A stretch of 64,000 nucleotides of DNA from Candidatus Bathyarchaeia archaeon (GTDB taxonomy: Archaea > Thermoproteota > Bathyarchaeia > Bathyarchaeales > Bathycorpusculaceae). The translations under genes were made by a program, and so were the position numbers. The notes under the pieces were generated by a model. The model had not been told where the DNA came from and made no database searches. It was given only the letters and a program-made list of their open reading frames with translations. Below, one piece after another: positions 1,552 to 30,597 of the stretch; within the stretch, counting starts at the first letter, position 1; every line of letters starts with the position of its first letter. The stretch covers positions 160,001 through 224,000 of the forward strand of contig JBBFKZ010000001.1 in assembly GCA_037481775.1 (NCBI GenBank), read 5' to 3'.

Positions 1552-2670
1552 TTGCCAAAAGTTACCATATCCCTAATCAAGTGTGATATCGGCTCGTTGG
1601 CTGGACACCATATTGTTCCCAAACCCATATTTGACATCGCGGAGAAAAGCCTCAAAAAAGCAACAGAAAACCGCATCATAAACAGTTTTTACGTTTTCAA
1701 CGCAGGCGACGATCTCGAACTGCTCATGGTGCATGAAAAAGGCGAACAAAACGCGGAAATTCACGGGCTCGCTTGGGAAACATTTAAGGAGTGCGCCAAC
1801 AAAGCTGCACAGTTAAAGCTCTACGCTGCAGGCCAAGATCTTTTGAAAAACGCTTTCAGCGGGAACATTCGAGGGATGGGCCCGGGCGTTGCAGAAATGG
1901 AGATAGAAGAACGAACTTCTGATCCAATCGTGGTTTTCGCAGCTGACAAAACATCTGCTGGCTCATTTAACTATCCTCTCTTTCGTATATTCGCCGATCC
2001 AATGAACACTGCTGGCCTCGTTATTGATCCAAACATGATTTGTGGCTTCAAATTCGAAGTTATAGACACGTTGGAAAACAAATCTATAATCCTTAAATGC
2101 CCCGAAGAAATTTATGATTTGCTGGCTCTAATTGGCACAGTAGGACGTTATGTAATCTCTCGCGTCTGGAGAGCAAGTGACAACTTGATCTGCGCTGCAA
2201 GCAGCGTAAGTAAGCTTTCATTAATAGCTGGAAAATACGTGGGCAAAGATGATCCAGTAATGATTACTCGGGCGCAGCATGGCCTTCCTGCTGTCGGCGA
2301 AATCTTGGCGCCTTTTATGCATAGCTACTTTGTGCAAGGTTGGATGCGAGGTAGCCACTGGGGGCCAATAATGCCCGTAGGAATGAAATCATCAAAATGT
2401 ACTGCTTTTGATGGTCCACCAAGAATAGTTGCCTTAGGCTTTCAAGTGGCGAATGGTCGAATTTCATGCGATGATGAAGGGAACCCGCTTATCGCGGACT
2501 TGTTCGATGATCCAGCGTTTTCATTGGCAAGGCGTGAGGCTATGCGTAACGCTTGTATGTTACGGAATATGGGTGAATTTGAGCCTGCACGTTTAAGTGC
2601 TGAAGACATGGAGTACACGACAATACAGCAAGTTCTGGAAAAACTCGGGAAGCGCTTCAAACCTCTTTGA
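1552..2670 (+). CDS. fbp: Fructose-1,6-bisphosphate aldolase/phosphatase (class V FBPase)
   Basis: KVTISLIKCDIGSLAGH, AGDD, LYAAGQDLL, GNIRGMGPG, GKYVGKDDP (Schiff-base Lys/Tyr) and GWMRGSH. The ORF track starts at 1516; TTG at 1552 fits the family N-terminus. Confidence 0.95.
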   Translation: MPKVTISLIKCDIGSLAGHHIVPKPIFDIAEKSLKKATENRIINSFYVFNAGDDLELLMVHEKGEQNAEIHGLAWETFKECANKAAQLKLYAAGQDLLKNAFSGNIRGMGPGVAEMEIEERTSDPIVVFAADKTSAGSFNYPLFRIFADPMNTAGLVIDPNMICGFKFEVIDTLENKSIILKCPEEIYDLLALIGTVGRYVISRVWRASDNLICAASSVSKLSLIAGKYVGKDDPVMITRAQHGLPAVGEILAPFMHSYFVQGWMRGSHWGPIMPVGMKSSKCTAFDGPPRIVALGFQVANGRISCDDEGNPLIADLFDDPAFSLARREAMRNACMLRNMGEFEPARLSAEDMEYTTIQQVLEKLGKRFKPL

Positions 2671-2683
2671 AATTCCTGTGGAA

Positions 2684-3295
2684 TTAAGTCGACGGAACAG
2701 TGTGTTTGGCAAAGTTAGCTAATACTGTGCATCTGTTCTCGACAATCGCGTGGAGCCTTCTGCGCAGTTCTTCCCCAACTTTTTCCTTTGTTTTTAGCAA
2801 AGCTACTTTTTTCGAAAGCTCTACATCGCCTATGCCAGTGAACCAAGCTTCAAAATCTCCACGGCTCAAATGAAAATTTATGGATTCTTCATTAACTTTC
2901 AAAATTTTATCGCAAAAATCTTGAAGGCTGTCCGCAGAGATGTTTAACGGCTTCCCTATACCCGCATAAAAGTGAAATGATTTATCTGGCGGCATCTGCG
3001 ATAATAGTGCTTGCGCCTTCTCTTTGTCAATCTCGGGCACACCAAGTGCTTTTTTGCCTTTTTCCGTTATGACGTATAGCCCTTTTGCAGGTGATGCGAT
3101 GTATCCCATGCGCGTGAGCCATATTATGTGCATCATGACTGACGGAAAATCTTTCCCCAATTCCCTTGCTATGGACGCTGGTTTTTCTGGTTTATCAAGT
3201 AACAGCATAATCTCTAGTATCTCACATCTAACAGGCGACAAGCTCATAACTACAATACACCTTAGAGGTATATGTACATACAAACTAATCAACAT
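2684..3295 (-). CDS. Winged-HTH + DUF5752 domain protein
   Basis: N-terminal wHTH (PASIARELGKDFPSVMMHIIWLTRMGYI...YVITEKG). C-terminal FHFYAGIGKP...ADSLQDF...SINFHLSRGDFEAW is typical of DUF5752. Confidence 0.75.
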   Translation of the reverse strand: MLISLYVHIPLRCIVVMSLSPVRCEILEIMLLLDKPEKPASIARELGKDFPSVMMHIIWLTRMGYIASPAKGLYVITEKGKKALGVPEIDKEKAQALLSQMPPDKSFHFYAGIGKPLNISADSLQDFCDKILKVNEESINFHLSRGDFEAWFTGIGDVELSKKVALLKTKEKVGEELRRRLHAIVENRCTVLANFAKHTVPST

Positions 3296-13727: not shown

Positions 13728-15290
13728 ACGAAGAAACAACAAGACCCAAAAACAGTAGACACTCTGGATCAGCCGCAAGCACCAGCAATAATCAGCGGTG
13801 CACCTACAAAACCTGCAGTTTTCCAAGAAGTCTACGCCCTCCAAGAGCCATACGTGTACGCGGCAATTGTCCGAGAAAAAGAAACCCAAAAGCTGCGCTA
13901 CGAAGTTATAGAGCCTACTCTCCAACCAAACGAGGAAAAGTATCTTCGTGAAATAAAGAATTTTCTGATGGATGAAGTAGACGTAAACTTGAAAGAAATT
14001 GAAAACAAAGACAAAGCAGAAAACTTTCTAAGACAAAAAATCCGGGGGATCATAAAAAAGTACCGCATGAAAATCCCAGCAGAAGCGGTTGACAAACTCA
14101 CCTATTACATAATAAGAGATTCCTTAGGCTACGGAAAAATTGACCCATTAATGAAAGATCCTTTAATTGAAGATATCTCTGCAGACGGCACAAACATTCC
14201 GCTCTACGTGTGGCATCGCTTCTACGAGTCGCTGCCAACAAACATAATGTTCACAAACGTCGCTGAACTGGATGCCTTCATAATTCGCCTTGCATATCTA
14301 GCTGGCAAAAGCATTTCTCTAGCTACACCAATTCTTGACGCGACTCTTCCAGAAGGAAGCCGCATACAGCTCACCTACGGCAGCGAGGTCACCCGAAGAG
14401 GCTCAACCTTTACTATAAGGCGCTTCAAAGCGGATCCGCTGACAATCTCGGATCTCATAGCTTTCAACACCCTTTCCTCGGAGATGGCTGCTTACCTGTG
14501 GTTCATCATAGAGAACCGAGCTTCAGTCTTGGTGGCAGGCGGGGTAGCCAGCGGCAAGACCACTCTGCTCAACTGCCTATCCATGTTCATAAAACCTGAA
14601 ATGAAAATTGTAAGTGTCGAAGACACTCAGGAGCTTAATCTCCCACATGAAAACTGGATACCCTCCGTAGTGCGCACTGGCTTCAAAGGTGATGACAAGC
14701 AAAGCGGCGACATCACCCTCTTCGACTTGCTGAAGGCGGCGGTTCGGCAGAGGCCTGACTACATTATTGTCGGTGAAGTGCGTGGTGAAGAAGCCTACAC
14801 GCTGTTCCAAGCCATGGCCACAGGGCACTTGGGCATGTCCACCATTCATGCTGAATCAGTCGACGCCGTAATTAAGAGGCTTGAATCCGAGCCGATGAAT
14901 ATTCCTAAGTCGCTTATTGCGATGACTAACGTCATTTTAGTTATGGAAAGAACCGAAGTTAAAGGGAGACCTGCAAGGCGAGTGAGCGTTGCATCTGAAG
15001 TAAAAGGAATTAATGCAGAGACAGATGAGATTCTAACTGAAAATGTGTTCCGCTGGAGCCCTCAGTTTGACAAGTTCACTTCAGGCGACAGCGTCCTCTT
15101 GGAGAAGCACATGAAGAAGCTGGGTTTAACCGAGGAAGATATACAACGTGAATTTAAAGCTAGGAAGACTGTTCTGGAGTGGATGGTAAAGGAGGGGATC
15201 CGACACTACAGTGACGTGGCCAAAGTGATCAGAGAATACTATGCTAACCCGAACCGTGTCTTCCAAAAGGCGAGAGTGGGGTTCAAATGA
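13728..15290 (+). CDS. Archaeal type IV pilus assembly ATPase (VirB11/TadA/ArlI-like)
   Basis: GYGKIDPL, GGVASGKTT, VEDTQEL, RQRPDYIIVGEVRGEEA, ATGH. The ORF track starts at GTG 13854, but the frame is open upstream and an ACG at 13728 follows GGAGG (see findings). Confidence 0.92.
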   Translation, partial: TKKQQDPKTVDTLDQPQAPAIISGAPTKPAVFQEVYALQEPYVYAAIVREKETQKLRYEVIEPTLQPNEEKYLREIKNFLMDEVDVNLKEIENKDKAENFLRQKIRGIIKKYRMKIPAEAVDKLTYYIIRDSLGYGKIDPLMKDPLIEDISADGTNIPLYVWHRFYESLPTNIMFTNVAELDAFIIRLAYLAGKSISLATPILDATLPEGSRIQLTYGSEVTRRGSTFTIRRFKADPLTISDLIAFNTLSSEMAAYLWFIIENRASVLVAGGVASGKTTLLNCLSMFIKPEMKIVSVEDTQELNLPHENWIPSVVRTGFKGDDKQSGDITLFDLLKAAVRQRPDYIIVGEVRGEEAYTLFQAMATGHLGMSTIHAESVDAVIKRLESEPMNIPKSLIAMTNVILVMERTEVKGRPARRVSVASEVKGINAETDEILTENVFRWSPQFDKFTSGDSVLLEKHMKKLGLTEEDIQREFKARKTVLEWMVKEGIRHYSDVAKVIREYYANPNRVFQKARVGFK

Positions 15291-16282
15291 GAAAAAAGCT
15301 CATGAAGAAACTCGCTACTGCCAAGGAACATTTAGCAGCGCTTAAAGGGTTAGATGAAAGTTCAAAACAAACACAAAAATCACTCTTGAAAGAACCTGTT
15401 GGGTTTTTGGAAAAGCCGTTATCTATAGCTTATCAGCTAATGGGCAGTAAAGCTGAGCGGTTTATGCCCCTATTCAAAGATTTAGACCAAACATTGCAAA
15501 AAGCAGGCTTAAAAATTAACTTCAAAGCATATATAAGCTTAACAATTTTATCGTCGCTATTGATCGCCTTGGCAGTAGCGGCAGTGTTGCCTCTATTGTT
15601 ATTTTCTATTTGCGCCGTGCCAATAAGCTCAGCGCTCTTATTCGGTTTAGGCGGCGGTCTACTCGCATGTTTTCTCTCGATTATTGGTTTTTACCTCTAT
15701 CCAGTTTATCATGCGGATAAGCATAAACGAGAATTGGATGACGAGTTGCCCTTTACGACTGGCTACATGGCTATCCTGTCAAGTGCAGCTGTTCCTCCTG
15801 AAAAAATTTTTTATTCGCTCTCAAACTTGAATGTGCCTTTAGCTGTTTCCGCAGAAGCCAAAGAAGTTGCAAAAGGCATCAACTTGTTCGGTTTAGACGT
15901 GATATCCGCCTTAGAAAGGGTGTCAAAACGCACACCTTCTGAAAAACTGCGAGGCATCATAGAGGGAATAATATCTACAATACACACGGGCGGCAACTTA
16001 AGTGCGTTTCTGAGAGGAAAATTTAAGGTCGCAATGAACCTGAAAAAAGTGGGACTCAAAAAGTACGCCGACAATTTGGCAATTCTGTCGGAAATTTATG
16101 TAGCCTTACTCTTGACTGGCCCGTTGCTTCTAGTCATTATGGTGTCGGTTATGTCGGTGATGGGCGGCAGCATAGGCTTACTCAGCCCCGACATGCTACT
16201 GGGGCTTTTAACTTATTTGGTGATTCCAGTTTGCGCTGTCGTATTCCTCCTAATCTTGGACTCAACTTCGCCAAAATGGTAG
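15287..16282 (+). CDS. Type II secretion F / TadB-TadC-like pilus membrane platform protein
   Basis: LDDELPF, GLDVISALERVSKRTPS, HTGGNL and multiple TM helices; follows the ATPase. Confidence 0.88.
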   Translation: MRKKLMKKLATAKEHLAALKGLDESSKQTQKSLLKEPVGFLEKPLSIAYQLMGSKAERFMPLFKDLDQTLQKAGLKINFKAYISLTILSSLLIALAVAAVLPLLLFSICAVPISSALLFGLGGGLLACFLSIIGFYLYPVYHADKHKRELDDELPFTTGYMAILSSAAVPPEKIFYSLSNLNVPLAVSAEAKEVAKGINLFGLDVISALERVSKRTPSEKLRGIIEGIISTIHTGGNLSAFLRGKFKVAMNLKKVGLKKYADNLAILSEIYVALLLTGPLLLVIMVSVMSVMGGSIGLLSPDMLLGLLTYLVIPVCAVVFLLILDSTSPKW

Positions 16283-25902: not shown

Positions 25903-27096
25903 ATGTGGCGGTTGGGCTTCTTCTTCCACGAAATTGCGTTCGGCTTGCTTTCGATATTTATCCCTCTGTATGTAGTAACACCAGCTGTTGGTGGTTCACT
26001 AGTTGACCTAGGCATAATGACTTCCTTAGCACTGCTTTCGGCTATACCTGCCTCCTTCTTCTGGGGTTACATCTGCGACAGAACCAGACATTATAAGCTC
26101 TACATTCTTCTGTCGTTTATTTCACTGGCTGTTATACTTTACCTTCTGACCTTCGCCACAGACGTTCGCACGTTCACTTTTCTTTACGTAGTAATGGCTG
26201 TCCTTCACGTCGCCCATGAAGCACCAAAAAACGTTCTGATAGCCGAGCACTACCCAAGGGAAGATTGGGGGAAATCCTATGCCCTTTATGAGGGCTTTAC
26301 GGAGATCGGTTCACTAATTGGCTTGCTAATAGGCTTGTTTACGTTCACAGCTGCTTTAACCCCCCCTCTCATCTTGTTTCTGTGCAGCGGCTTAAACTTG
26401 GCAGCTTTTATTTTATCCATCTTCTTAGTGGCGGATCCGCTTATAATCTTCGAAAGAAGACTGGTCAGCATAGAAAAAAAGATTGACTACACCTACAACG
26501 GCTCGCGGATCTTTGCTAAGCTTTCGGATGGATTATCTCTTCGTGAAAAGTTCAAAAGCGAAAACTTCAAGGTATTTAGCGCTGGCTTGGTTCTTTTTTC
26601 TCTGGCTTCCAGCTTATTCTTCACGCCGCTGCCAATATTCTTCTCCAAAGCGCTTGACTTACCCGAGAACATGGTATTCCTGATTTACGTGCTAAATTCC
26701 AGCGGCGTCATGTTCGGTTACTTTTTGGCAGGAAAAAAAGCGGCTTCTCCAAATGCAAAATTGCATGTTCAGCGGCTTGCGCTTCTTCGAGGCACATTAG
26801 TTCTCGCATTGGTCTTCATAGTCAATTTGGCTTTCTCGCCGACGCCTTTGGCCTCCGTAATCTTGATTTTCATGGGTTTCGCATACGCTTTTTATCATAT
26901 TCTAACGCTTTCGCTGTCTATGGAGTTGATTCCCGCTGGAAAAGCAGGTTTGTTTGATGTGCTTGTGGGCTTAGGCTCCTCTTTAGGCTCTTTTCTAGGT
27001 CCTTTCTTGGCTGAAACCTTTGGTTTTCTGCTTCAGTTCATGATTGCAAGCGCCATATTCTTTATGGCTTATGTGTTTTTCAAACTTTTTTACTGA
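25903..27096 (+). CDS. MFS transporter
   Basis: About 12 hydrophobic segments and motif-A-like WGYICDRTRHYK. Confidence 0.85.
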   Translation: MWRLGFFFHEIAFGLLSIFIPLYVVTPAVGGSLVDLGIMTSLALLSAIPASFFWGYICDRTRHYKLYILLSFISLAVILYLLTFATDVRTFTFLYVVMAVLHVAHEAPKNVLIAEHYPREDWGKSYALYEGFTEIGSLIGLLIGLFTFTAALTPPLILFLCSGLNLAAFILSIFLVADPLIIFERRLVSIEKKIDYTYNGSRIFAKLSDGLSLREKFKSENFKVFSAGLVLFSLASSLFFTPLPIFFSKALDLPENMVFLIYVLNSSGVMFGYFLAGKKAASPNAKLHVQRLALLRGTLVLALVFIVNLAFSPTPLASVILIFMGFAYAFYHILTLSLSMELIPAGKAGLFDVLVGLGSSLGSFLGPFLAETFGFLLQFMIASAIFFMAYVFFKLFY

Positions 27097-27119: not shown

Positions 27120-28574
27120 TTATTCTGTATGTACTCGGAATAGGTCGATGTCTTCGCGCATTGCTGGTGTTAGCTCTAAGAATTCTCTGACTGCCCGCTC
27201 CACGTCTTTCGCTTGTGTTACGTATCTTCCAACGATAATGACGTCCGCGCCTTTCTCCAACGCCTCTTTTGCAGTTTCCGGTACTATTCCACCTGCGACG
27301 GCTATTAGAAATCGTTTGTCCGGGAAGGTTTGGCGCAGTTTCGGTATCAGATCCAGCCCAAGGGTTTTCCCTGTTTCCTGATCTATTCCTCTGTGGATTA
27401 CAATCATGTCTGGAAACTCTTTAAGCTGCTTAAGCTTTCCAATGGGGTCTTCCACGTTCAGCATGTCCACAACACCGTAGATGCCAAGTCGTCTTGCTTC
27501 GTGCACAAAAGCGTCTAATGTTTCAGGCGGCGCCAGACCGGCGGCAACCACCGCGTCGGCCGTGTCCTCGTAGGCTATGTCAACTTCAACTTTTCCAACA
27601 TCCAAAGTCTTCAAGTCAGCAATCATAAACGCGTCTTTGGCAACCTGCCGTAGCTCGTTTATCACGCGGGTTCCGTAACGTTTGATTAATGGCGTCCCAA
27701 CTTCGATGATTATTCTGTCGCTTCCAGGCATCTGAGAGAGAACCTTCTTAGCCTTATCCAGTTCTGGTGGGTCAAGCGAAATCTGCAGGTAAGGCGGTCT
27801 CCACAAGCGCGGAACCTTGAAGCCCATTATCGGGTGCTTAGCGCGGTCTTTCTCGTAGAGCATCTTGTCAAGCGAAGGATACTTATTTAAGGCTCTGCGT
27901 AGCGCCAGCTTTGTTGCGCCATAATTGTACTGGTATATCTTGCGATAATCGCTTGCCTGAGGATGAATAAAGACGCTGCATATGATCACCCAGTCATCCA
28001 CCTTCTCCCTTGGAATGATGCCCTCCTCCACCGCGTCCGCAACTGCCTTTGCAACCGCAGCTTGGGCTGGACCGAAAATTTTCCCAGCATCCTCCATGTT
28101 CTTCACAGTAACCTTCGGCACAAGCAGCGTGTGCGGCTTAGGCGGAAGATTCGGCCGAATAACCGACAGCAAAGGCGTGTGCCCTGCTGAAAGATTCGAC
28201 AAACTGGTAGCGAAAGCTTGCCCAACAGGCCCGTTTTTGTCGCCTATTAGGAGATCTATATGCGCTACCTCGCTTCCTTCTCCCAAGAGGGCTTCGCCAA
28301 TCAGGTATGTAGGCCCTGATTCTTCGACACATTCATCCGTGAACGGCATCGGTATGCGGTTCACAATGTCTTTAAAGTCGACATTGAACTCTTTAAGCCA
28401 AGTGTAAAGAGTATCTCGGTGTATATTAAGCTCCTTTGCGGTGCCTGCAACTGTCGGTCTTGTCGGTTTCTGTCCCTGCGAAAGTCTGCGTTCAACTTCT
28501 TTTTTAGCGGCTTCCGTCACAAGTTTTATGAAATCGTCTTTTGTTTCAGGCTTTTTAGTGTCTATATCCGACAT
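27120..28574 (-). CDS. fae-hps: Bifunctional formaldehyde-activating enzyme / 3-hexulose-6-phosphate synthase with extra N-terminal HTH
   Basis: Fae: IGEALLGEGSEVAHIDL, GHTPLLSVIRPNL, GPAQAAVAKAVAD, YNYGATK. Hps: IIEVGTPLIK, ADLKTLDVG, VAGG. Probable ATG at 28574 (ORF track start 28652). Confidence 0.92.
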   Translation of the reverse strand: MSDIDTKKPETKDDFIKLVTEAAKKEVERRLSQGQKPTRPTVAGTAKELNIHRDTLYTWLKEFNVDFKDIVNRIPMPFTDECVEESGPTYLIGEALLGEGSEVAHIDLLIGDKNGPVGQAFATSLSNLSAGHTPLLSVIRPNLPPKPHTLLVPKVTVKNMEDAGKIFGPAQAAVAKAVADAVEEGIIPREKVDDWVIICSVFIHPQASDYRKIYQYNYGATKLALRRALNKYPSLDKMLYEKDRAKHPIMGFKVPRLWRPPYLQISLDPPELDKAKKVLSQMPGSDRIIIEVGTPLIKRYGTRVINELRQVAKDAFMIADLKTLDVGKVEVDIAYEDTADAVVAAGLAPPETLDAFVHEARRLGIYGVVDMLNVEDPIGKLKQLKEFPDMIVIHRGIDQETGKTLGLDLIPKLRQTFPDKRFLIAVAGGIVPETAKEALEKGADVIIVGRYVTQAKDVERAVREFLELTPAMREDIDLFRVHTE

Positions 28575-28678
28575 TTCTGTCGCCTCTGCGTCTGTATAGC
28601 GAGACGTGTATATAAGAATGTCGGAGCAAAACAATTGTTTCAACGAGAGCACAGCTGTTTTTTCTGAAATTCTGTCGG
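28569..28678. promoter_or_regulatory. Promoter of fae-hps with candidate operator sites
   Basis: Palindrome CGACA-TTTC-TGTCG (28569..28582) over the start codon; minus-strand TATA TTATATA (28609..28615); TGTCGG half-sites at 28619 and 28673; palindrome AAACAATTGTTT (28629..28640). Confidence 0.5.
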
Positions 28679-28873
28679 CTAAGAAGTTGATTGTTAAGGC
28701 ATAACACTTTTGGTTTAAAGAAACTGCTCCTGCATTGGGCTGATATCTGTGTGCATTCGTGCGCTGCGCGCTCTGTAAGTGTATAAGCGGTTAGCGCTAA
28801 AATTTAATAGTCCCTTAGATTTAGCGGTACATCTATATCTCCGCGTGTACTCTGTGTTAGCAAATATTCAACG

Positions 28874-29074
28874 GTGTCCTGTATGTTTAGGCTTAATTGG
28901 GTGTGTTTAAGCTTGATCTTGCTTGGTTTTGTGCTTTTTCTTTACGGCGCTAACTTCTACGACGCAATAGTTGGCTGGCTGGGCGTTTTCGTCATTCTTG
29001 GAGGTGCACTTGCGCTTCTTCTTTTATACATTTATTGCGAGTTAAAGAAACAAGGATCTGTTCAGAAGCCGTAG
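28874..29074 (+). CDS. Small two-TM membrane protein
   Basis: Two hydrophobic segments around LYGANFYDAIVGW; probable ATG at 28883. Confidence 0.6.
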   Translation: MSCMFRLNWVCLSLILLGFVLFLYGANFYDAIVGWLGVFVILGGALALLLLYIYCELKKQGSVQKP

Positions 29075-30597
29075 AGTCCACTGTACTTTTCTTCTAAATA
29101 CCGCAAGTAAGGCTCAGCGTCCAGTTTTCTTCCAGTTACTTTAGTTATCAAGTCTGGCGGGTCATACAAGGCGCCATGTGAATGAACGTTTTTAGCAAGC
29201 CATGCTATGATGTCTTTCGCGTTGCCCTGTGCAAGTTGGCTTCGCCAATCTTTTATATCGCTGGCTAAAGCGGCGAGCAGCTGCCCACTGTAGATGTTGC
29301 CTAAAGCGTAGCTTGGGAAGTAGCCGTAGTACCCGCTTGCCCAATGCGTATCTTGCATCACTCCTTCAGAGTCATTTTCAATTTTCAAGCCAAGAAGCTC
29401 CTCGTACTTTTGATTCCATACCTCTGGCAGCTGACTAACTTCGACTTTGTTTCCGAACAGGTCCTTCTCAATTTGGAATCGAATTATTATGTGAAGGCAA
29501 TAGGTTACCTCGTCGGCTTCCACGCGAATCTTTGAGGGCTTAACCTCGTTTATAGCGTGCACAAACGGGTCTAACTCAAGATGCGCTAGGCTCGAGCCAG
29601 CTATTGCTTTCAGCTTAGGTAGGAAGCTAATCCAGAATTCTCTGGAGCGCCCTACAATGTTTTCCACGAAGCGGGATTGAGATTCATGTATACCATAAGA
29701 GCAGCTTGCGCCGACAGGCTGGTATTTCCATTCTCTCGGCAGTCCCTGCTCGTACAATGCGTGTCCAGTTTCATGAAGCACCGAGAAGATTGAAGATGCG
29801 AATTCTTCAGGGTAATAGTGTGTTGTAATTCTCACATCGTCATAATATCCCGTGGTGAAGGGATGCTCCGTTTCATCGATGCGCCCAGCGGCATCCGACG
29901 AGCTAACATCGTAGCCCATTGCCTCTGCAAGAGCTTTCGCGATTTGCCGCTGCGCTTCAATTGGAACATTGCATTTAAGCACCGCTGTATTCGGCTGGTT
30001 TGGCGCATTCTGAATCTTCCTAAGCAGAGCAACTAGCCCCTTTTGAAGCTGCTCAAAAATAGGCGCGATTGCCGCAGCGGTCATTTTAGGCTCAAAAATA
30101 TCTATAAGCGCATCATAGGGTGTTGCTGTTGCCTTGACTTTCATGAGAATTTCTGCTTTTTCCCGGTTAAGCTCCACAAGTTTCTGCAGCTCAGGCTGAA
30201 GCAGGCTGAAGCATTTTGCAGCTTTTGCTTTTTTCCAACTGTTCACTGTTAACGCTTGCTGCTTGGCGATTTCTGCAACAAGCTTTTCCGGCAGCTGAGT
30301 TTGCTCATCATAATTTTTCTTGATAAGATAGACATTCCGCTTTTCTACCTCAGTTAAAGTGTCATATTGTGGGCTTGCGAGTATTTCGTTTAAGAGCTTT
30401 CCAATTTCTGGTGAAGTGCTCATCTTATGGCTGATGCGGCTTAACAGCGCAAGCTGCTGGCTCCGCTGCTCGATGCCCCTAGGCGGCATCATGGTTTCCA
30501 TGTCCCAGTGAATTATGGCTTCAGCGGATTGCAGAACAATCAAGTCTTTGGCTAATTCAAGCAGCTTTTTATATGCTAAGTGCACTTCGGATGCCAT
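29062..30597 (-). CDS. Carboxypeptidase, family M32
   Basis: WDMETMMP, HPFT, DVRITT, HETGH, HESQSR, IRVEADE, QDTHW, GYFPSY. Confidence 0.96.
   Translation of the reverse strand: MASEVHLAYKKLLELAKDLIVLQSAEAIIHWDMETMMPPRGIEQRSQQLALLSRISHKMSTSPEIGKLLNEILASPQYDTLTEVEKRNVYLIKKNYDEQTQLPEKLVAEIAKQQALTVNSWKKAKAAKCFSLLQPELQKLVELNREKAEILMKVKATATPYDALIDIFEPKMTAAAIAPIFEQLQKGLVALLRKIQNAPNQPNTAVLKCNVPIEAQRQIAKALAEAMGYDVSSSDAAGRIDETEHPFTTGYYDDVRITTHYYPEEFASSIFSVLHETGHALYEQGLPREWKYQPVGASCSYGIHESQSRFVENIVGRSREFWISFLPKLKAIAGSSLAHLELDPFVHAINEVKPSKIRVEADEVTYCLHIIIRFQIEKDLFGNKVEVSQLPEVWNQKYEELLGLKIENDSEGVMQDTHWASGYYGYFPSYALGNIYSGQLLAALASDIKDWRSQLAQGNAKDIIAWLAKNVHSHGALYDPPDLITKVTGRKLDAEPYLRYLEEKYSGLYGF

Follow-up and report, generated by a model that had tools for sequence, protein, structure and literature searches.

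Enzymes that carry their own DNA-binding domain and regulate their own genes are a known kind of protein. In Escherichia coli and Salmonella, PutA joins an N-terminal ribbon-helix-helix (RHH) domain to proline dehydrogenase and pyrroline-5-carboxylate dehydrogenase and represses its own gene, with flavin redox state and membrane binding as the switch; in the biotin ligase/repressor BirA and in NadR, an N-terminal helix-turn-helix (HTH) domain sits on an active enzyme, and the product or an intermediate acts as corepressor. The closest archaeal case is RbkR, a riboflavin kinase and regulator with an N-terminal HTH-type domain and operators at its own gene; it was first predicted by comparative genomics and binds DNA under stimulation by CTP and suppression by FMN (PMC5397151). 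Here, we describe a candidate of this kind in a 64,000-nucleotide stretch of contig JBBFKZ010000001.1 of a Candidatus Bathyarchaeia archaeon (assembly GCA_037481775.1), hereafter the window. A single open reading frame (ORF) encodes a fusion of formaldehyde-activating enzyme (Fae) and 3-hexulose-6-phosphate synthase (Hps) behind an HTH-like N-terminal domain, and its promoter and 5′ coding region bear an array of CCGACA boxes.

The layout of PutA, an RHH domain on an enzyme, recurs in the RHH-Fae-Hps forms that we find in other Bathyarchaeia orders; PutA itself is bacterial and its enzyme part is not homologous, whereas the head in the window is of the HTH type and not an RHH, and Pfam finds only Fae and OMPdecase in its enzyme part, which places the window's protein outside the PutA family. 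BirA and NadR share the N-terminal HTH on an enzyme, but they are bacterial, belong to unrelated enzyme families, and have palindromic operators bound by a ligand-induced dimer. With RbkR the likeness extends to an archaeal metabolic enzyme with an N-terminal HTH-type domain and operators at its own gene; RbkR, however, is a riboflavin kinase with a winged HTH and a regulon of riboflavin genes (PMC5397151). The boxes of the Fae-Hps gene, in contrast, occur at that gene only, as single 6-mers phased by ~53 bp that extend into the coding region. Methanogen Fae-Hps proteins, as modelled by NCBIfam NF009833, begin at the Fae domain, to which the window's protein adds 89 N-terminal residues. A literature search at the level of titles and abstracts found no published account of a DNA-binding domain, HTH or RHH, on Fae-Hps, and no description of such a fusion together with a box array and a parallel RHH form. 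Bathyarchaeia are abundant and almost wholly uncultured, and we know of no account of their gene regulation. Fae-Hps sits at the junction of the tetrahydromethanopterin (H4MPT) one-carbon pathway and pentose-phosphate synthesis, and the candidate regulator–operator pair is directly testable, since it comprises a single protein, a word of 6 bp and a promoter fragment of 230 bp.

The gene lies on the minus strand, where the ATG at 28572..28574 opens a frame of 484 codons that ends at the stop codon 27120..27122. Residues 90–483 cover positions 2–390 of the 392 in the Fae-Hps equivalog model NF009833 (583.2 bits, cut-off 274), a full-length match above the curated cut-off. The Pfam scores of both catalytic domains exceed their gathering cut-offs. 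The matching PDB chains are 1y5y, a formaldehyde-activating enzyme (E=5e-44), for the Fae domain, and 9lj9, 3f4w and 3ajx, all 3-hexulose-6-phosphate synthases, for the Hps domain, in which the stretch ADLKTLD forms a D-x-K-x-x-D sequence that we take to be the motif of that name. Given the end-to-end NF009833 match, the two Pfam domains and the nearest PDB chains, the enzyme part looks intact, and this ORF is the sole Fae-Hps match in the source genome.

The earlier note on this DNA, made from its letters alone, had read some 88 residues ahead of Fae without an intervening stop and had placed an HTH among them. Both readings hold: residues 1–89 precede the NF009833 match, and the stretch named as the HTH (residues 40–62) is HTH-like by hidden Markov model (HMM) matches that all lie below threshold, namely HTH_29 (E=2.1e-5; 25.0 bits against 28.1), GP3_package (2.4e-5; 24.9 against 29.4), HTH_28 (5e-4) and HTH_23 (1.6e-3). 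By these scores the N-terminal domain is HTH-like, yet a member of no curated family. A profile of 31 relatives compared with the PDB returned a phage protein, 2ao9, as its best match, a weak one (E=0.043), and a search of the ESM Atlas with the domain gave no usable match. Invariant in the alignment of the 31 are M1, P9, P40, T41, H52, R53, D54, T55, L56, W59, V65 and F67, of which H52 through L56 and W59 are presumed to lie in the recognition helix; residues 67–89 are a linker, variable both in sequence and in length.

The domain is common among relatives. Residues 1–92 match 675 database proteins at E<=1e-3, and among the 120 matches listed all carry Fae, with most being 478–484 residues long. 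Of 41 genomes from its order (G000 included), 33 contain it, and it was confirmed in 335 of 346 candidate stretches in a survey of one genome per species. By title, 76 of the 80 best loci belong to Bathyarchaeia, Bathyarchaeota or an older name of the group, and four bear other or generic labels. An internal start at the ATG at 28349, which would have undone the earlier proposal, is unlikely because M76 is not conserved whereas residues 1–67 are. Comparison of these sequences thus supports the N-terminal extension as a translated, conserved domain, one that databases overlook in naming such proteins merely Fae/Hps.

Outside this fusion the domain is hard to find. The source genome holds no paralogue of it, and an exhaustive representative search with residues 1–92 yielded no stand-alone HTH family; its 46 matches were for the most part pieces of this fusion together with generic HTH repeat proteins. 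The sole match hinting at another context is P0132 (153 residues), which has the same HTH domain at 49% identity over residues 6–76 followed by a different C-terminal sequence, and which may be truncated. An apparent stand-alone HTH ORF in G025 was rejected, as the ORF is cut by the contig end. Among apparent HTH-Fae proteins lacking Hps (273–306 residues), the one examined, L055 (306 residues, 1601..3043), is a frameshifted full-length gene with its Hps part split over two other reading frames, and the short database forms P0029, P0034, P0037 and P0058 may be similar assembly artefacts.

The boxes read CCGACA on the gene strand and TGTCGG on the plus strand (Table 1). Five copies fall within 227 bp; the whole 1.82-Mb genome holds 527 on both strands, below the 6-mer mean of 869, and the Poisson probability of ~1e-8 for such a group leaves chance no explanation. 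The TATA box begins three bases after the proximal box. All of these copies, the TATA box and a 14-bp palindrome over the start codon lie where the earlier note had located them. The palindrome, CGACATTTCTGTCG, is matched once in the window against 0.03 expected, occurs in 3 of 100 shuffles, abuts the Shine-Dalgarno-like GAGG with its upstream half, and as RNA would form a 5-bp hairpin (-6.1 kcal/mol, z = -2.05).

Table 1 Features of the fae-hps gene and its promoter, in window coordinates; offsets are counted from the A of the ATG.
Feature	Position	Strand	Basis
ORF, 484 residues and stop: N-terminal DNA-binding-type domain, Fae, Hps (P0001)	27120..28574	-	ORF list; NF009833
N-terminal domain, residues 1-89	28308..28574	-	outside every Fae-Hps model; alignment of 31 sequences
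HTH-like core PTVAGTAKELNIHRDTLYTWLKE, residues 40-62	28389..28457	-	Pfam matches below gathering scores
Distal CCGACA box, -104	28673..28678	-	direct copy at -90..-112 in 41/108 loci
Proximal CCGACA box, -50, abutting TATA at the TFB-recognition element (BRE) position	28619..28624	-	present at -46..-56 in 105/108 loci
TATA box TTATATA, -41	28609..28615	-	sequence and promoter consensus; inferred function
Shine-Dalgarno-like GAGG, -12..-9	28583..28586	-	such a word at -18..-4 in 96/108 loci; inferred function
Palindrome CGACA-N4-TGTCG	28569..28582	.	right half alone belongs to the conserved system
Inverted box over the start codon, gene strand A-TGTCGG = ATG TCG G	28568..28573	+	conservation of codons 2 and 3
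Coding-region box P37-T38, +108	28461..28466	-	Pro-Thr at this place is CCGACA in 67/67 loci
Coding-region box P40-T41, +117	28452..28457	-	CCGACA in 88/108 loci
Fae domain, residues 92-250	27825..28301	-	PF08714, E=6e-73
Hps domain (OMP-decarboxylase fold), residues 261-465	27180..27794	-	PF00215, E=3e-34
T-rich tract immediately 3′ of the stop codon	27093..27119	-	sequence; convergent ORF 25903..27096(+)

The conservation of these elements was followed through 108 non-identical loci, drawn from 113 (33 of relatives and 80 of species genomes with the best N-terminal matches). The inverted copy starting at the T of the ATG is as frequent as the proximal box (105 loci), and at least two copies of CCGACA lie between -200 and +10 in 105. 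In an unbiased survey of all 6-mers CCGACA ranks first, with at least two copies in 104 loci, and the next words overlap it. Downstream of the start, direct copies number 155 at about +96 to +117 and 84 at +210 to +222; six order-level relatives have the distal copy inverted instead, at -73..-85. The resulting promoter consensus is TCCGACA.t.TTAtATA, some 30 unconserved bases, and aaATGTCGGg. The palindrome fares differently: it is exact in 4 of the 108 loci, and its left arm, CGACA within -16..-1, is found in 9. Self-regulation, as the earlier note proposed it, therefore stands in part, in that comparison links the domain to operator-like boxes on its own promoter; the palindrome that the note had taken for the operator is not conserved, whereas the CCGACA boxes are. 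A near-box, AATGTCGAC (28377..28385, codons N64-V65-D66), contains TGTCGA within a GTCGAC palindrome and does not share the phasing of the other boxes.

Where the boxes overlap codons, the choice among synonyms is revealing. Codon 2 is TCG in 106 of the 108 loci, a triplet that makes up 13% of the Ser codons in the gene body, and codon 3 starts with G in 106, though residue 3 varies among G, E, D, A, N, I and V. P40 is encoded by CCG in 91 loci, as against 9 for the equally invariant P9, and Pro-Thr in the linker is written CCGACA in 80 of 85 cases versus 4 of 45 in the Fae-Hps body. Because codon choice is forced at codons 2 and 3 and at P40-T41 while the amino acid varies or alternative codons are rare, the comparison indicates that the constraint is on the DNA and not on the protein. 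The same alignments indicate that the conserved cis unit is the single CCGACA box, repeated ~53 bp apart, rather than the 14-bp palindrome.

The spacing is regular. Box centres lie ~53 bp apart from distal to proximal and from proximal to start, and the intervals from the start box to the coding pair, and on to the +210/+222 box, each measure ~105 bp; the distal-to-proximal distance is 52–54 bp in 31 of the 41 HTH loci that have a distal box. As ~53 bp, or double that, corresponds to five or ten helical turns, the boxes would face one side of the DNA.

The arrangement also appears to have a single target. The pattern CCGACA-N1-5-YTTWWAWA occurs once in the entire source genome, at fae-hps. A similar box-plus-TATA pattern gave mostly one match, at fae-hps, in each of 41 related genomes, with extra matches no commoner than for a reversed-pattern control. 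Other close CCGACA pairs in the genome were rejected, their sites looking like coding regions. A second cluster, with five CCGACA/TGTCGG copies in 126 bp (16068..16193), lies inside a membrane-protein ORF, 15287..16282(+), and includes a 9-bp-spaced pair like that in fae-hps. It is kept in L128–L131, reduced to two copies in L139 and missing in the 22 further homologous loci that were inspected. Improbable by chance, it is nonetheless probably not a conserved target, and was not accepted as one since its conservation is confined to the genus.

The principal new evidence is drawn from other Bathyarchaeia orders, where Fae-Hps may bear a different head. Among 251 Bathyarchaeia genomes, 127 have Fae-Hps; in 49 of the 127, by a count of the rows, the match starts no later than residue six of the query, which marks the HTH type. 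As controls, 40 later-starting loci were chosen by hand to spread over families, of which 37 were typed automatically. Thirteen, from other Bathyarchaeia orders (L159, L160, L166, L169, L171, L180–L182, L186 and L189–L192), carry an RHH head with the pattern M..GLVRAPGRITxEQYxFLExLVxxGR.xSxSEAxRAAI. This head is ParD/CopG-like, with Pfam matches to ParD_antitoxin and RHH_1 near their thresholds and a PDB profile match to ParD (E=6e-5), and its alignment is unrelated to that of the HTH head (hhalign probability 0.2%). The RHH form is widespread: 122 proteins (P0167–P0286) have it, nearly all of ~448 residues with Fae and HPS domains.

The promoter word changes with the head. None of the 13 RHH loci has CCGACA; GTGACAC/GTGTCAC is present at least twice in 10 of them and at least once in 12, the proximal two of them between about -72 and -52 and a distal one 51–52 bp farther upstream, a distance found in 8 of the 13, and all of these repeats lie upstream of TATA. 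GTGACAC, in turn, is absent from all 108 HTH loci, and in 21 head-less loci neither word is present twice. A third head, a second HTH type (NVSRDTIERRLK), is found on the Fae-Hps of L167 (G051) and L168 (G072), both of family f17, and both promoters have TGCGGCA directly after TATA and an inverted GCCGCA upstream. Each of three unrelated DNA-binding-type heads on the same enzyme is thus paired with a promoter word of its own, and a spacing of ~52 bp is shared by two of the three, which makes for an unusually clean natural experiment on enzymes turning into regulators. Because the RHH-type repeats keep the same 51–52-bp distance, we infer that the spacing may be set by the oligomeric enzyme and not by its head; in solved homologues Fae is presumably a pentamer and HPS a dimer, with which the chain counts of the matched PDB entries agree.

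Loss of the head was found in family f1. Two genes there, L177 (G155) and L178 (the second copy of G197, which also retains a full-length copy), have in-frame deletions that remove the HTH and leave the first ~12 residues (MSG.EVKKPE..). These genes have CCGGCA beside TATA and read ATG TCA or ATG TCT at the start, so that, by this comparison, decay of the boxes appears to accompany loss of the HTH. Fae paralogues in relatives proved unusable as further head-less controls, being the C-terminal parts of DapA-like fusions; many relatives (L034–L046) have a second Fae-like match that forms the C-terminal portion of a ~500-residue ORF whose N-terminal portion looks DapA/aldolase-like.

A maximum-likelihood tree built quickly from 59 enzyme bodies, from which one row dropped out and for which a careful search is unfinished, places the HTH type in one clade (support 95) with the two f1 deletion genes nested inside as sisters, which makes their deletion one event. 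The RHH type is essentially one clade, and head-less genes surround the third type. Behind the co-distribution of head and word there would thus be some three gains and a single loss, which all agree.

Taken together, these observations favour a bifunctional enzyme and regulator that controls its own gene, probably as a repressor, and we regard this as the likely reading. An active-looking enzyme and a DNA-binding domain share one polypeptide, as judged from sub-threshold HMM matches and from the parallel RHH fusions, and comparison across loci reveals conserved operator-like sites at the gene's own promoter. Several observations weigh against it. The HTH assignment draws on Pfam matches below threshold and on the weak match to 2ao9. 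Since by the tree each head type has essentially one origin and there is one loss, the co-distribution amounts to about four events and not 142 loci. Non-box codons are also kept (V65 as GTC in 92 of 108 loci, G44 as GGA in 81), so relatedness or some other constraint accounts for a share of the conservation of codons. L173, a single diverged HTH-type locus outside the order, has aCGACA at TATA and ATG TCA at the start. Among the controls, three of the 40 hand-picked loci gave no match in automated typing, L179 was left untyped, and the start codons of head-less genes are approximate.

As a model, the N-terminal domain would recognise the individual CCGACA boxes that line the promoter and the 5′ coding region of its own gene. 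A Fae-Hps oligomer would present several HTH heads on flexible linkers (residues 67–89), which could reach boxes ~18 nm apart in either orientation. Given TATA at -41 and the Shine-Dalgarno-like word at -12..-9, transcription probably starts a few bases upstream of the start-codon box; the oligomer would then occupy one box beside TATA and another just downstream of the likely start, hindering TFB, TBP and RNA polymerase and so repressing its own synthesis. Repression is favoured because one box abuts TATA at the TFB contact and another lies just downstream of the probable start, and such places are the usual positions of archaeal repressor sites. By analogy with RbkR, PutA and BirA, control by formaldehyde, H4MPT or sugar phosphates (for example ribulose 5-phosphate or hexulose 6-phosphate) is plausible. 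A broader and more tentative proposal, which we hold to be possible but doubtful as a whole, is a one-carbon/pentose-phosphate-sensing factor built on an enzyme scaffold: the oligomer geometry would set the ~52-bp phasing, two or three unrelated heads (HTH, ParD-like RHH and second HTH) would have been recruited independently, and binding would be switched as formaldehyde, H4MPT or a sugar phosphate occupies the enzyme. If true, archaea would here have their first transcriptional switch linked to formaldehyde.

The domain might bind the same boxes and yet activate, or act in both directions, recruiting TFB and TBP at low occupancy and repressing at high. Known archaeal activators have sites immediately upstream of BRE/TATA, and the distal and proximal boxes of the HTH type, like all repeats of the RHH type, lie upstream of TATA; but the proximal box abuts TATA at the TFB contact itself and a further box sits just downstream of the likely start, and we consider activation or dual control unlikely, though a live alternative.

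It seems more improbable still that the boxes belong to a separate, unlinked, order-specific transcription factor, and that the head of Fae-Hps serves some other end such as protein–protein contact or the unspecific tethering of an enzyme that scavenges formaldehyde to DNA or the nucleoid. Here the essentially single origin of the HTH type speaks for such a factor, as any lineage-specific one would distribute alike, and the sub-threshold HTH assignment points the same way. A separate factor would not, however, account readily for the decay of promoter boxes in the HTH-deleted lineage, for two unrelated heads on the same enzyme that each have their own promoter repeat, for three boxes inside the DNA that encodes the domain, or for the lack of a second conserved target with the box-plus-TATA arrangement.

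Very improbable is an RNA element in which UGUCGG at the start pairs with a CCGACA copy (in the genus, with CGACA four bases upstream) and hides the AUG or ribosome-binding site: apart from the one at the AUG, every copy has the sense orientation, the palindrome gives the local hairpin noted above, and the HTH deletion removes the coding-region copies so that loss of the remainder would also be expected, but the best-conserved partner (-52) is probably untranscribed, since it lies upstream of the conserved TATA (~42 nucleotides before the ATG) and then the Shine-Dalgarno-like word, the hairpin's left arm is rare (9 of 108 loci), six-base helices spanning 50–200 nucleotides are weak, the distal copy is inverted in the order-level relatives, and the RHH-type repeats lie entirely upstream of TATA.

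The self-regulating candidate is a solitary gene. Upstream, a gap of 490 bp separates it from the preceding ORF, 29062..30597; downstream, the neighbouring ORF is convergent and lies beyond the T-rich tract, a possible archaeal terminator. An Rfam scan of 28400..29200 returned no match. The model for 6-phospho-3-hexuloisomerase, TIGR03127, has its best genome match at 68 bits against a cut-off of 160 (G000:C6:63205-63933), so the partner enzyme of Hps is not clearly present in the source genome.

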